A DNA stretch of 64,000 bases, taken from positions 71,672,001-71,736,000 of the forward strand of contig OX597825.1 of NCBI GenBank assembly GCA_951406725.2. The letters are read 5' to 3'. Shown here piece after piece: positions 2-19,900 of this stretch. The notes beneath the pieces are model-generated. The model made no database searches and was not told the DNA's origin. It saw nothing but the letters and a program-made list of their open reading frames with translations. The position numbers and the translations under genes are program-made. Each line of letters starts with the position of its first letter. Position 1 is the stretch's first letter. The stretch is from Octopus vulgaris (Eukaryota).

Positions 2-1144
2 AATCAGTTCAAGACTTTAATATTGATGCCATTTCAAGGACAAATAGTGAGATTTTATCAGAATATTGAATTAACTATTGAAAAAGAAAGCGCGAACACT
101 ACCTCTAAAAACACCAATAAAAAACTGTTACCATCGCTGTGTCGAATAGAATTGTTGAATGAAGATGAGAAAACAACGCAATCAAAAGAAATTATTTTAG
201 AAGAAAGTAAAATATGCATATGTTTAGTCGGTTGTAAATGTATTTGTGATCAACCATATACATGCGAAATGATAGACAAGAGAACCACCACTGAATCTCC
301 TGTCAAAGACTTTCCTCATGAGAAACTCTGGGTTATTGTGTGCACAATTTTATTTCTACTTATGCTACTCAATTTACTAAAATTCTCTTTTGGCTTTTGC
401 TTCCCAATTCCCGTTGGCGAAGCAGGGCTATGTGTTTTTATAACAAGTAGCTTTCAGTGTGAATATCTCGAAAAAGATCTTCAGCAAAAAGCAGTAGAGT
501 ACGATGAAGACGGTTACCCAGTGCATCCGAAAACTAAAGAAAGAGTGCGTGCTTTGCAGTACAAGACAATGGGTGCTCTGAATTTATTATTCTTCTTTTA
601 CTTGCCATTTATTGTCTTTCATTGGTTTTTAGCACGAAACAAGATAAATAAAAAGAAAAAGGATATAACGTGGGACAAGTTAGAAACAACTGTTGAAATG
701 GTCAAAGAAGGCGATGACAACTTTTGTTTGCACCGTGCTTTGAAAAGAGCATCATGTCAAACAATATCATCAGATCAGTCCGAATTGCCAGACCCCGTCC
801 AAGAAGAAAGGAATTCTATATTAGAGGAATATGGTAGAAGAATATATAAAGGGAAATGTGGTGAGGAGTCAGTGAAACACCCGTGCGAAAAGTCTCCGAA
901 ATTATCTAAGGATTGCCAACGAAAGAGTAAATTGAAATGTGTGTTTAATAATTTTCGAAAAACAGAGAAAGAACCTAGTTCATGTGAAAGTTCAGACTGT
1001 CAGAAAAGTATTACGGATAATCTTTCAGCATGTATCATACCTGATATTACCCAAACTATTCGCGACGGTCACGAGAGTAGTTCATCTGAGCCTTCTTCAT
1101 GTTCATCATTCAAGAGAACTCCTAAAAAAGATAAATGTTCTTGA
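2..1144 (+). CDS. HAP2: 3' part of a HAP2/GCS1-like membrane protein (paralog 1; 5' end lies outside the window): domain III end, Cys-rich stem, two hydrophobic segments, short (~170 aa) tail
   Basis: Frame is open from base 2 (NQFKTLILMPFQGQ...) and aligns colinearly with the giant gene at ~18250-19350 (QFKTYTLTPFQGE; CRIELLNED vs CVIELWNED; CICLVGCKCICDQPYTC vs CLCLVGCKCSCDPPYPC; GFCFPIPVGEAGLCVFI; DGYPVHPKTKERVRAL; FFFYLPFI; SDQSELPD). Stop TGA 1142-1144. Confidence 0.75.
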   Translation, partial: NQFKTLILMPFQGQIVRFYQNIELTIEKESANTTSKNTNKKLLPSLCRIELLNEDEKTTQSKEIILEESKICICLVGCKCICDQPYTCEMIDKRTTTESPVKDFPHEKLWVIVCTILFLLMLLNLLKFSFGFCFPIPVGEAGLCVFITSSFQCEYLEKDLQQKAVEYDEDGYPVHPKTKERVRALQYKTMGALNLLFFFYLPFIVFHWFLARNKINKKKKDITWDKLETTVEMVKEGDDNFCLHRALKRASCQTISSDQSELPDPVQEERNSILEEYGRRIYKGKCGEESVKHPCEKSPKLSKDCQRKSKLKCVFNNFRKTEKEPSSCESSDCQKSITDNLSACIIPDITQTIRDGHESSSSEPSSCSSFKRTPKKDKCS

Positions 1145-1760
1145 ATTTCATTGGCAGAATTTGTGAAACAGTTTAATATAAAAGTTGCCATTAAAAATAT
1201 TTGTAAATCTTGGGGGAAAGTGACAAACTGCAACATATTTTACCATTGTTCATTGGTAGAATTTGTGAACCTGTTTAATATATTTTTAAAAAAACGCCAT
1301 TTAAAATATTCTTGAATCGTGGGGAAATGTGAAAACCAACATATTTGATTTCAGTGTGCTTAATATTTCAATGACACACTAACAGAGGAATTTTTTTGAA
1401 GAAATACTTAACATTGGAATAGAGCTTGGTTTCGTAAAAATAGACGATATAGATGTTCACGATTTATTTGAATCCTATTCGAAAGGACTAACTCTCAGGA
1501 CATTCTTAATGTAGATCAACAAGCGGGTATACAAAGAAGACGAAGCTGAGTCGATGAAATGTACCACAAATTAAAGGAGTGACTGTAAAATAATTTTATG
1601 TTATGTTTCTCGAATACGAAATTTAAACTATTTGTGATGAATATCGATCCTAACGAACTTCATAACTATAGACAGTTACAGGCAAAGGCAACGAAAGAAG
1701 AATATATTAATGCGTATCAAATTACCATGGTTAAGTATTTTTATTTTTTCAAAGGAAAAA
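1145..1760 (+). mobile_element. Degenerate Tigger/pogo-like transposase remnant with an internal ~103 bp tandem duplication
   Basis: Translations ISLAEFVKQFNIKVAIKNICKSWGKVT, EEILNIGIELGFVKIDDIDVHDLFESYSKGLT and FVMNIDPNE resemble the C-terminal region of Tigger transposases; 1146-1243 is imperfectly repeated at 1249-1346; frameshifts and stops present. Confidence 0.55.
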
Positions 1761-16277: not shown

Positions 16278-16977
16278 CATGTATGTACGTTTGAAAGCCA
16301 GGATTTACGCGTGCCATATCTGTAAAGTTTTATGGGGAATTCCTTTACTGAGCAAAAATACTGACAGATAGATCATCAATGATTTTAATCGTCGGATGAT
16401 ATACAATATATACAATTAAATGGATTTAACTATAAATAGATTGGATAATTTATTCATTGTCACACGCACACACACAGTCACGTGATTACGCGCACGCACA
16501 GTAGTCATAAATATTACCATGTGTAGGAGAACATAAATTAGTAAAATAAATGAGTTACAACTAATGACTCCTTTCCGGTATCTACCCCACCGATGTTGAA
16601 ATCAGTAATAATAATCCATGGTGTACATTTAATCAGAACCGATCTTTATCAACAGGGAGTCAAATTCAAAGTAACAGCGTTGAGAAGAAATAGGTTGTTT
16701 CAAAAAGAATGACGCTAAACAAACGCGATATTGCCAACTGTCTGACATTTTCATGAAGGATGGATATTAAAATGAACATAATAGATAAGAATCCCGCTTT
16801 TTGAAGATATATAAAATCAGTAAGCTTTTTGGTTTTCATTTCTCGTGTGCTTATTTGCATAATTCGGTATATATACAATTATATATTTCTTCATGTTGTA
16901 TTTTTCTATATTCCTCTGTCTCGCTCATCCAATCAAATATTGTTGACGATTTAAATTTCATTAATTATGGTGGAATT

Positions 16978-19900
16978 ATGAAGCTACAGACATTGCTAAG
17001 CACATATGTTTTAACCGTCCTTCTACAACATTCAGACGAGGAACAGCGAAGTTCAAATTCCCATCGGTATCTAACACTGCAACTTGTGGCAGATATACAT
17101 AATTACAACGACTGGAAATTAGGTCGTTTCTACACAATTGAAACCATGATTGATTTAGCCACAAACAAAATTTTTTTTTTCGAAGATTCAGTAACTCTGC
17201 GCGTTTACTTCAGCGATTTACTTGTTGGTTATCCCCTCCAATTTTTGCAATTTGTCAACAATCAACCATACGAAATGACTTACAACCAAACCTGTGATGG
17301 TGATTATAAAAGTGCCGGAACTTTCTGCCAACAGTCCGATGTAGGTGGTAAGTCGTACAAAACAAAAGGATACTGCTGTCCTGAAAGTCTCCAGATGCAT
17401 TGTATTCTATATGATCCTTTATGGTATTCTGTTAATACTCTCGGCAACCCTATAATTATTCAAAGTCTTATGGTAGAGGTCTTTAGAAAAGAAAAACACG
17501 CTGTAAAAGTAGTGCAAAGTGTCGCACAAAGCAATCGTTTTCTTGTCAACGGCAAAACTATCGAGAAGAGAGACGACGACCTTTATTTCACGGCCCGCGT
17601 TCTTCACCAGACCAACTTTAGTTGTAGACAGATAATTTGTTCAAATTTAAATTATTTATTGATACCCGTTGCAAACTCGGCCCTAAACGATAGAAATCCA
17701 CAGGCAAAAACGGACATAAAAGGTGTTAATGAGTACTTGCTTATTAAGAAAAAATATTTTGATTTAAAAGGAACATCTTGTGGAGCAATAGGAATTGTTG
17801 CCGGCGCCGTTTTGAAAAAGACCGACCGTTGTACAAAATCCTTTGTCAAAACTTGTTTCAAGAATCAACCATTGAGTTTCTGGCTTGAAGATAATTTGAA
17901 GAAATTGAACAATAATGTGGAGTCAGACAGATCAAAATATTTCCTATCGCATTTTACCAAGCCAATGGCTCCTTATACTGGAAAAGTTCCCGGTTGGGTA
18001 TCAAATAAATCGTTGTTATTTGTAGAGAATAAAAGGCATTCAGTTCGGGCACAGCTAGATATTATAATAAATCTTAACAAAGATCTTCTTCCTTCTGCAA
18101 TTCCATTATTAAGTGAAGGATCCATTGGAACCTTGTACGGCCACCCATTTTCAGATAGTGGCCACCAATATGAGATTGGTATAAATGTAATTAACATAGG
18201 ACTGATTACAGGAAACTTTAAAGTATTATTAAACTGTGAACCTGATAGACAGTTCAAGACTTATACGTTGACCCCATTTCAAGGAGAAACAGTGATATTT
18301 TTTCACAAGTTTGAATCTATTGAAGGAGGCATTATTCCTGGAAATACTGCCAAATTACAATTTCCAGTGCAGTGTGTAATAGAATTATGGAATGAAGATC
18401 AGAAAACAGTTAAGTCAAAATACCTTATTTTAAAAAGAAACAAACTCTGTTTATGTCTAGTTGGTTGTAAATGTAGTTGTGATCCACCATATCCGTGTGA
18501 AGTGAAAAAAGCTAAAATGATCCATTCTCCGGTCACGGCTATTTTCCGAGACGAAACATTAGTTATTTTCGGTATAGTTTTACTTTTTCTTATGATACTT
18601 AATATGTTAAAACTCATTTTTGGATTTTGTTTTCCGGTATCTATTGGCGAAGCAGGGCTGTGTGTTTTTATAAAAAGCAACTATCAGTGTAAATATTTCG
18701 ATAAAGATCTTCAATATAAAGCTGTAAAATATAATAAAGACGGTTACCCAATGCACCCCAAAACGAAGCGAAGAGTGCGTGCTCTGTCACAAAAGCAAAT
18801 GGGGATTATGAATTTCTTTTTTTTCTTTTATTTGCCATTTATTGGCATTCATTGGCTTTTAGTACGAAAATATATAAATAAAAAGAAATCAGATATAATG
18901 TGGAATAAATTAGAAACAAATATCCAACTGATTCACGAAGGTGACGAAGAGCGTAGTTTGCACGAATCTTTACGAAAAACAACATGTCATTATTCATCAT
19001 CAGATCACTCCGAATTGCCAGATCATATCGAAGAAAAACGGAGTGCTATATTAAATGAATATGGGAAAAGAGTATGCAGACCAAAACGTCGGGAAGATTC
19101 GATTTGCAAACCGTCGAAAAAATCACAGAAACAATCTTCAGAAGACTATCGATCAAAGACTAAATTTAAAAGCATGCTTGCTAATATCATGAGAACTGAC
19201 AAGGATTCTACGTCATCAGAAAGTCTAGAAAGTCAGAAAGGTAAGAGGGATAGATTATCAACATTTCCGTTGACTAAATCGACAAAACGACAGACGTATA
19301 GTACTTCTATAGGACACGAGACTAGTTCATCATCGTTTGAGCCTCCATGCCAACCAACCAGTGAATCTATGAAAGGTATAATTCAGTTTCCACTATCAGA
19401 ATTAATTCTCGATGTTCCTCAAGAGAAGCCACCAGAGGATACTGACAAAAGAAGGATTGAGCGTGGCAATGTAGACGCAACAACTCTCTCTGAAATTGAA
19501 ATGAGTGATATTTCCTGTAGAGAAGTTGGGAAAAAGCCGTCTAAGACCAGCATCTTTAAAAAAAAGCTGTCAAAACCAAAACGGAGCACACCACGTGTTT
19601 CCTGGACAGAGGCAGATTTTGAAGAACAAGTGTGCAGCAGCAAAGAAGGTAAACGGCGTTTTGGATTCAAAGGAAAATCACGGGTGTCATCGAGTAAAGA
19701 ATCCAGAGAAGTGCCAGTTGGACCGTTAGGTGAAGAGAGAGGTAGAGCATCACCAGCTAAGTTAGGTAGCTTTTCTGATGTTTCCGCTCAAGGAGTTGAG
19801 TGCATGCCTCTAGTAAAATCTATGAGTGCGTTTCCCGTACAGGAGAGGGAGTATGTTTCATCAAGACAACCATCGACTACAATGCCATTAACTTCGGAAA

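Follow-up and report, generated by a model that had tools for sequence, protein, structure and literature searches.

Two tandem HAP2 homologs without a cd fusion loop in Octopus vulgaris, one with a giant repeat-rich tail

We describe two tandem genes, paralog 1 (P1) and paralog 2 (P2), in a 64,000-nucleotide stretch of Octopus vulgaris DNA (assembly GCA_951406725.2, contig OX597825.1, positions 71,672,001 to 71,736,000 of the forward strand; hereafter the window). By sequence comparison both are homologs of HAP2/GCS1, and they form a real but unusual variant of this known family, HAP2-homologous throughout. Both have lost the fusion loop that connects strands c and d of domain II (cd loop), and the part behind the last hydrophobic segment measures 6,914 amino acids (aa) in P2 versus 170 aa in P1.

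P2 and P1 matched the HAP2 family PF10699 with 86.3 and 78.4 bits respectively (cut-off 27.4), in agreement with the HAP2/GCS1 identity that a sequence-only reading of the window had proposed. Among solved HAP2 chains, 7S0K gave the best match, over domain II; its E value was 8e-6 with P2 as the sole query and improved to 7e-10 with a profile of three sequences. Alignments and hydropathy place a signal peptide (judged by eye), domains I to III, a stem and a membrane anchor in this order. Atlas features gave 0.95 for a class II fold at a recognition value below the threshold of the tool, and we infer such a fold for both proteins.

P1 lies only partly in the window. When the upstream DNA was read, its full frame was found to run uninterrupted over 798 aa, with intact start and ectodomain, from an ATG located about 1,250 bases left of the window (G000:C12:71670748; L013:4748). 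The protein collection represents P1 by a 561-aa piece only. Within the window, its open reading frame (ORF) 2-1144 is colinear with 18250-19341 (P2 residues 425-788; 49% identity over 371 aa, E 1e-115), and the Cys cluster, both hydrophobic segments (H1 and H2) and the DGYP.HPKTK motif are kept in P1 and P2, all as first read from the sequence. The main elements of the two genes are listed below.

2..1144, + strand: P1, 3' part of the HAP2 frame, an ORF of 380 aa open at the window edge
323..379, + strand: P1 H1, membrane anchor, hydropathy 2.42
509..538, + strand: P1 DGYPxHPKTK motif of the membrane-proximal module, from sequence
575..631, + strand: P1 H2, flanked by basic residues on both sides
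632..1144, + strand: P1 tail, 170 aa, in which similarity to P2 fades near 1020-1110
16505..17046, + strand: P2 5' tract (upstream region and signal-peptide codons), ~540 bp, 96% identical to the P1 tract
16978..39598, + strand: P2 coding span, ~7,540 aa with X at five frame breaks
16978..17034, + strand: P2 putative signal peptide, judged by eye
17035..18540, + strand: P2 HAP2 ectodomain (domains I-III and stem), 18 Cys, all common to P1
17374..17403, + strand: P2 collapsed domain II tip, 7 residues from the strand-c CC to the strand-d C
18562..18618, + strand: P2 H1, hydropathy 2.67
18739..18768, + strand: P2 DGYPxHPKTK motif, from sequence
18805..18861, + strand: P2 H2, from hydropathy

The collapsed tip of domain II

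The deletion in P1 and P2 takes the cd fusion loop, the motif of the R-G-G-Q-x-C type with its invariant Arg, and both loop-closing cysteines. Aligned to P2, the 39-residue cd connection of Chlamydomonas HAP2 falls on two residues. We surveyed the cd connection in 141 proteins (isoforms included), 81 of which had a recognisable strand-d motif; the 59 with both flanking motifs were measured and 82 were unmeasurable. The shortest connections (7 residues) belong to P1, P2 and P0002, a 1,163-aa Logan protein with 36% identity and the same loop deletion; three tick proteins have 11, and the next have at least 25. The P1 ectodomain, whose fusion loop the sequence-only reading had expected to be checked upstream, is present there but its cd loop is deleted. 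The gamete recognition and fusion system suggested by that reading keeps its HAP2 homology, while its role in fusion becomes doubtful because both copies are without the loop.

Seven cysteines, one Glu and the Arg are invariant in 38 HAP2 sequences (PMC6089408). Five of the seven tip cysteines are kept in P1 and P2, as are the cysteines of the ij loop. The strand-b Glu that partners the Arg is also kept in both and replaced in P0002, while the Arg motif is deleted in all three. Tip residues differ among the three proteins, which have no aromatic patch in common. In addition, P1 and P2 miss the bivalve-type N-terminal Cys pair, and their first variable region is shorter too. By these alignments, three features of a canonical fusogen are missing: the cd loop, the Arg-Glu bridge and the set of seven tip cysteines. 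HAP2 proteins of known structure (PDB 7S0K, 6E18/5MF1/6DBS, 5OW3 and 5OW4) resemble P1 and P2 in sequence over domain II, with the Glu of strand b, five tip cysteines out of seven and those of the ij loop in common; they differ in having the cd loop, the invariant Arg and one further Cys pair; P1 and P2 have two hydrophobic segments. Hydrophobic cd loops are present in every solved HAP2 structure (PMC8777248).

The molluscan and nemertean 'hapless 2-like' proteins of Solemya (KAL5009314.1), Pecten (XP_033735139.1), Mytilus (CAC5374079.1) and Lineus (XP_064623728.1) have the same domain order, Cys scaffold, H1-GxPxHP-H2 module and C-terminal domain. Solemya, Pecten and Lineus still have a cd connection of 38 residues, with the R-G-G-Q-x-C type motif, and also the N-terminal Cys pair, where P1 and P2 have a cd connection of 7 residues; across the named bivalve and nemertean proteins the connection measures 33-38 residues. 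In Solemya, Pecten and Lineus the linker before the C-terminal domain spans 120-350 aa, versus ~6,800 aa in P2, and is cut off in P1. Pecten and Lineus also have splice isoforms, whereas the P1 and P2 frame is uninterrupted; isoform differences in Pecten, Lineus and Ornithodoros fall outside the loop and so give no sign that the loop deletion arose by exon skipping before retroposition. No closer loop-bearing relative was present among 132 matches. Three word-index searches for more close relatives returned the protein of the window itself or nothing, a weak negative as one of them missed even P0002.

Shortened cd connections are also found in ticks. Rhipicephalus KAL1487266.1, Ornithodoros XP_064484785.1 and Ixodes CAN8032015.1 have an Arg-less connection of 11 residues but, unlike P1 and P2, keep both loop cysteines and sit in the arthropod clade. 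Judged from these alignments and the tree, the tick shortening is independent of the octopus loss. Within the tick set (P0024, P0059, P0090 and P0069), Ornithodoros has in addition a second HAP2-like gene with a 26-residue, Arg-bearing cd connection. The giant HAP2 proteins of Megachile and Vespa (2,400-2,500 aa) resemble P2 in being enlarged by a long low-complexity insertion. Their insert of ~1,700 aa, however, interrupts the extracellular cd connection and leaves the Arg motif in place, whereas that of P2 follows the membrane module in a protein that has lost the loop. These insect proteins are P0010 and P0136-P0139; other arthropod-type sequences have 80-500 aa at this place.

Likeness of P1 and P2 to EFF-1/AFF-1 and the archaeal Fsx1 extends to the class II scaffold, by inference. 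EFF/AFF proteins are without the Arg-Glu bridge and act from both membranes, while Fsx1 needs its loop. P1 and P2, known here from sequence, gave no match to PF14884 (EFF-AFF) at E values up to 1; an Atlas feature look-alike reached 0.89 only.

The tail of P2 and the conserved C-terminal domain

In the assembled sequence P2 consists of six overlapping frames joined over five small indels, and the assembled version stops at 2,752 aa. The contrast of a 170-aa and a ~6,900-aa tail drawn from the sequence alone therefore stands in length, but the long tail is not one ORF of the window. Read through with X at the breaks, P2 has 7,542 aa and no internal stop, versus 455 and 479 stops in the other two frames. 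The tail and its frame breaks are arranged as follows.

19400..21800, + strand: first part of the inserted P2 tail, low-complexity and weakly periodic
21800..38440, + strand: coding tandem repeat with a base unit of 51 bp (17 aa); Ser 24-29%, Arg 10-19%, net charge close to zero
about 24200-25460, + strand: repeat block of 156 bp
to 33978, + strand: repeat block of 153 bp
about 35600-36990, + strand: block of near-identical 51-bp repeats
25215..25226, + strand: frame break 1, C homopolymer
31280..31292, + strand: frame break 2, AG run shorter than in sister units
32500..32512, + strand: frame break 3, AG run shorter than in sister units
34363..34374, + strand: frame break 4, AG run, gone in 3/3 covering public runs
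36638..36646, + strand: frame break 5, AG run shorter than in sister units
39281..39598, + strand: ~105-aa C-terminal domain conserved in bilaterian HAP2, with the stop; assigned by homology, no Pfam, PDB or Atlas match

All five breaks fall in C or AG runs, which make up ~6% of the span. Break 4 is the only one in near-unique sequence. It is covered by three of four public runs, and all three have two more bases there, restoring the frame. These contigs come from three studies, with read depths of 4.2, 278 and 5.4; a single contig under depth 5 may err, one run is possibly the assembly's own sample, and the read evidence concerns break 4 alone. The contig of depth 278 spans 33980-35450 and belongs to run X11, a small contig set of 68 million letters which was not used as evidence of expression. 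Introns were considered as an explanation of the breaks and rejected: four of the five have no frame-restoring consensus splice pair within 300 nt, and the fifth is resolved by the reads.

Substitutions among the repeats give a second line of evidence. The count covers 46 units of the 153-bp array that follows break 1, with the two break-bearing units and the degenerate ends set aside. Of 105 possible synonymous changes 70 occurred, compared with 139 of 331 possible non-synonymous and 1 of 23 possible stop-making ones, and none of them yields a stop in place. Stop-making changes are thus depleted (p 1.4e-5), with a Fisher p of about 1e-5 in both contrasts; as the units are interrelated, distinct changes were counted. 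No decay was seen downstream of break 1. Several lines support the giant tail of P2 as coding sequence: the read-through frame is open, stop-making changes are few, break 4 is absent from the reads and a conserved domain terminates the frame. The span covers ~22.6 kb of coding DNA, which the assembly slips hide from annotation.

The terminal domain also sets the polarity of the two tails. A genome search with Solemya HAP2 aligned its residues 188-677 with 17383-18906 and its residues 741-841 with 39281-39586. The P2 domain is 41% identical to that of Pecten and 42% to that of P0002. A single-sequence search found it in 13 of 142 stored proteins, those of bivalves, nemerteans, Lingula (brachiopod) and Ptychodera (hemichordate) among them, and a second-round profile added Saccoglossus; it is absent from most arthropod sequences examined, and Pfam, PDB and Atlas searches gave no match. 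From the GxPxHP motif to this domain, nine relatives have 117-433 aa and P2 has ~6,800 aa. The giant Ser/Arg-rich tail is therefore read as an insertion, because P2 ends in a domain common to other bilaterian HAP2 proteins. Downstream of P1 no trace or remnant of the domain was found. On this comparison P2 is the ancestral layout plus a huge insertion and P1 a truncated derivative. Short- and long-tailed copies do exist as first read; the polarity is the reverse of one copy having grown a tail, as P2 keeps the C-terminal domain and P1 has lost it. The analysis defines a previously unannotated domain of bilaterian HAP2.

In composition, the P2 tail has 24% Ser, 13% Arg, 10% Ile and 10% Glu with a net charge near zero, and its repeats contain almost no Asn or Cys. 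It is a 17-aa unit homogenised in 156-, 153- and 51-bp blocks, with fast block turnover. We counted 384 RxS/T, 226 RxxS/T and 531 CK2-type motifs. An EB1-binding SxIP array was discarded, since only 9 true SxIP occur versus 139 SIP, and the composition makes a mucin-like extracellular tail less likely. At more than ten times their length, the tail exceeds the 500-residue HAP2 tails called extended in PMC8777248. Besides H1 and H2, the membrane region has a third, weaker hydrophobic segment. In 7/7 proteins checked, basic residues follow H2, and in several they also precede it, so that H2 is tentatively read as re-entrant or paired and the tail as cytoplasmic. The scarcity of Asn and the hundreds of RxS, RxxS and CK2-type sites in the repeats also favour a cytoplasmic location; most likely, the tail is both cytoplasmic and disordered. 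P0002 has a tail repeat of its own, an unrelated 10-aa unit at residues about 780-880, in the same place as the giant array of P2.

Copy number, selection and origin of the pair

The genome (2.8 Gb, 227 contigs) was searched with P2, PF10699 and Solemya HAP2. In every case P1 and P2 were the sole strong loci, and the C-terminus of P2 found only itself. With two short bivalve queries, the results were P2 alone and a single weak match, P1 being missed by one of them. Matching works on one exon at a time, so that coverage of intron-rich genes is incomplete, and one search used a stricter first look. Candidate third loci on C14 (E 0.75) and C2 (E 1.4) were rejected, as no HAP2 features appeared on inspection. 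Locally, tblastn and a profile of 82 other HAP2 proteins revealed no third copy in 164 kb (60 kb to the left, the window and 40 kb to the right), where the only matches were P1, P2 and the end of P2. The cluster proposed to extend to the left is thus not borne out, and a single tandem duplication is indicated because these searches found no third copy locally or genome-wide. P1 is not a haplotype duplicate of P2 either, their bodies being just ~70% identical.

Duplication alone is a modest novelty, because HAP2 duplicates are known elsewhere (PMC10630298, PMC6504885); Leishmania, Dictyostelium and Plasmodium have two each (PMC10630298). That HAP2 is usually single-copy, the premise of the sequence-only reading, accordingly needs softening. 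Among the collected proteins, tick has two HAP2 loci and horseshoe crab three records in one cluster. The latter, Tachypleus P0040, P0149 and P0150, fall in one 90% cluster on contigs of equal length, suggesting recent duplication.

Between P1 and P2, dS is 0.58 and dN/dS 0.55 (bootstrap 0.43-0.69; 599 codons), below the value near 1 named beforehand for an unconstrained duplicate. By region the ratio is lowest in the membrane module (0.39) and reaches 0.53-0.63 in the ectodomain, where 18/18 cysteines are common to both. In neutral simulations at half the P1-P2 divergence, 0/1000 were stop-free. Both copies are under moderate purifying selection.

The tree groups P1, P2 and P0002 together (100), and a long stem joins them to the rest of a mollusc clade (SH-like approximate likelihood ratio test, SH-aLRT, 99); the stem branches measure 1.18 and 0.89, with support of 99-100, and the end branch of P1 is twice that of P2 (0.48 vs 0.23). 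These values come from a quick IQ-TREE run on 38 rows with long inserts and tails trimmed and the careful search unfinished, and they involve long branches and a deviant composition of P1.

Around the start codons, from about -473 to +69, P1 and P2 share a tract of 96% identity with only 2 mismatches between -285 and +61, against ~70% identity in their bodies. A mobile repeat was dismissed, as the tract occurs at only 2 places in the genome. The simplest reading of the alignment is a recent gene conversion of the upstream and signal-peptide region, and from it one would predict shared regulation of P1 and P2. Microsatellites of GTAT/AT type lie directly upstream of the P2 tract (14018-15461 and 15876-16277), and similar tracts lie 2-2.5 kb upstream of the P1 start. 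The uninterrupted frame, set against the isoform-bearing bivalve and nemertean genes and the conserved introns described for HAP2 (PMC6089408), suggests that the pair descends from a retrocopy that replaced its parent gene.

Possible roles of HAP2 without a fusion loop

The comparisons show the following history of the pair. The HAP2 of this lineage, an uninterrupted single-frame gene, lost its cd loop before the split from P0002. A tandem duplication followed; P1 ends ~170 aa past the membrane module. P2 kept the ancestral C-terminal domain while its linker grew from roughly 120-430 aa, as in relatives, to ~6,800 aa through tandem amplification of a 17-aa Ser/Arg/Ile/Glu unit.

As to function, we tentatively favour the view that P1 and P2 are sperm-surface docking proteins unable to insert a loop, to which P2 adds a phospho-regulated scaffold and P1 a tail-less partner. 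Both would be co-expressed membrane proteins of the male germline; in a bivalve, a 'hapless 2-b' contig rises during spermatogenesis (PMC4082630). Without the loop, P1 and P2 would be unable to insert into a target bilayer in the way of plant and algal HAP2, so the conserved scaffold would most likely work through protein contacts that dock or anchor sperm, either to the egg or to the female tract. Any membrane merger would be supplied or helped by another factor. The P2 tail would most likely link the membrane module to the C-terminal domain as a multivalent scaffold or spacer that phosphorylation could switch, and P1 may co-assemble with P2. A shift of function is supported by the long stem branches inside the mollusc clade. 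In octopus, stored sperm sit in the female epithelium, to which the acrosome anchors them, and the egg is entered through a micropyle (PMC11753710). One may speculate that a non-inserting HAP2 would spare stored sperm fusion with somatic cells. Several points weigh against docking. No loop-bearing HAP2 was found elsewhere in the genome, so that a different fusogen is needed. The Arg-Glu pair is absent from viral class II and EFF/AFF proteins, which do fuse (PMC8777248), and Tetrahymena mating survives mutation of the Arg (PMC6089408). The ectodomain dN/dS given above is also compatible with partly relaxed selection, and the topology of H1 and H2 is ambiguous: the tail would be outside if H2 crosses the membrane.

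An alternative that we consider unlikely, yet of real weight, is that P1 and P2 still act as the gamete fusogen, through trans-assembly with an egg fusexin or receptor (bilateral zippering as in EFF-1/AFF-1) or through a minimal tip to which the bc and ij loops contribute. No other HAP2 copies were found, the order of domains I-II-III, stem and anchor is kept with the remaining cysteines, and both cysteines of the loop pair were lost together in a clean deletion common to a protein of just 36% identity (P0002). EFF-1 is not known to have a hydrophobic loop. Bilateral action is reported for EFF-1/AFF-1, Arabidopsis HAP2 (in cultured cells) and Leishmania HAP2-2, and T. cruzi HAP2 has three small loops only (PMC6089408). 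However, fusion is abolished in Arabidopsis by Arg-to-Ala or loop hydrophobic mutations (PMC6089408) and in Chlamydomonas by Arg-to-Ala (PMC8777248), and even the bilateral fusogen Fsx1 still requires its loop (PMC9259645). The divergent tip residues without a shared aromatic patch, the shortened first variable region and the long branches also speak against it. We regard as quite improbable that HAP2 became dispensable and that P1 and P2 merely persist while selection on them is weak or fading, with the tail a tolerated repeat expansion that has no function of its own. This would fit the ectodomain dN/dS, the fast turnover of repeat blocks, the freedom with which HAP2 tails vary and can be replaced by a glycosylphosphatidylinositol (GPI) anchor (PMC9259645, PMC8777248) and the lack of HAP2 in several animal lineages. 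It is hard to reconcile with two intact frames where the neutral simulations yielded none, with the depletion of stop-making changes in the repeats and with a terminal domain conserved behind 20 kb of repeat.

Two further explanations are compatible with any of these readings. A canonical, intron-rich and loop-bearing HAP2 elsewhere in the genome could carry out fusion, P1 and P2 being derived accessory retrocopies. The incompleteness of the exon-by-exon search, which once found P2 and missed P1, leaves room for such a gene; bivalve and nemertean isoforms imply introns, and tick has a short-loop copy beside a longer Arg-bearing paralog. We hold it to be very improbable, as no convincing third locus emerged from protein or family searches, the two weak hits were featureless and the matches contained no closer loop-bearing relative. 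Most improbable is a P2 that is truly broken or shorter (e.g. 2,752 aa), some of the frame breaks being real mutations. Four of the five assembly breaks do lie in arrays beyond testing by contigs, and slippage mutations occur in such runs. Against this stand the confinement of all breaks to C and AG runs, the absence of break 4 from every covering run in three studies and the lack of decay past break 1.

Going beyond docking, a rather unlikely but far-reaching proposal from these sequences is that the lineage, probably the cephalopods, fuses gametes with a loop-less HAP2. A co-assembly of P1 and P2 would act through an egg partner, remain inactive during long sperm storage and be freed by mass phosphorylation of the 6,800-residue cytoplasmic repeat. 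If true, it would be unprecedented as a natural HAP2 fusogen that works without inserting a loop, and would far exceed in size every other fusexin seen in these searches. Bilaterian gamete fusion is largely unknown, and a role of HAP2 in it is assumed from homology. P1 and P2 seem to be all that remains of HAP2 in this genome; in them nature has deleted an element thought indispensable for HAP2 fusion, and the loop-less genes are conserved over a long evolutionary distance. If repurposed, they may represent an intermediate toward the complete HAP2 loss of vertebrates and nematodes. In the literature searched (mostly papers outside subscription journals), where PMC6826153 and PMC7688107 contributed nothing specific, we found no description of a cephalopod HAP2, a natural cd-loop deletion, a HAP2 of this size or the C-terminal domain, and HAP2 is unmentioned in the main text of an Octopus maya testis study (PMC6341066).

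Other features were noted near the locus. A reverse-transcriptase fragment (44844-45794, - strand; PF00078, E 1e-32) is probably a remnant of a long interspersed nuclear element (LINE). About 8 kb right of the window, an uninterrupted 233-aa ORF of the FAR-17a/AIG1 family (L009:7863-8564, - strand; PF04750, E 4e-39) is a second apparently intron-less gene near P1 and P2. Tandem 141- and 184-bp copies of one short interspersed-type repeat, presumably a short interspersed nuclear element (SINE), occur on both strands at 4381-4656, 55626-56279 and 56572-56946.

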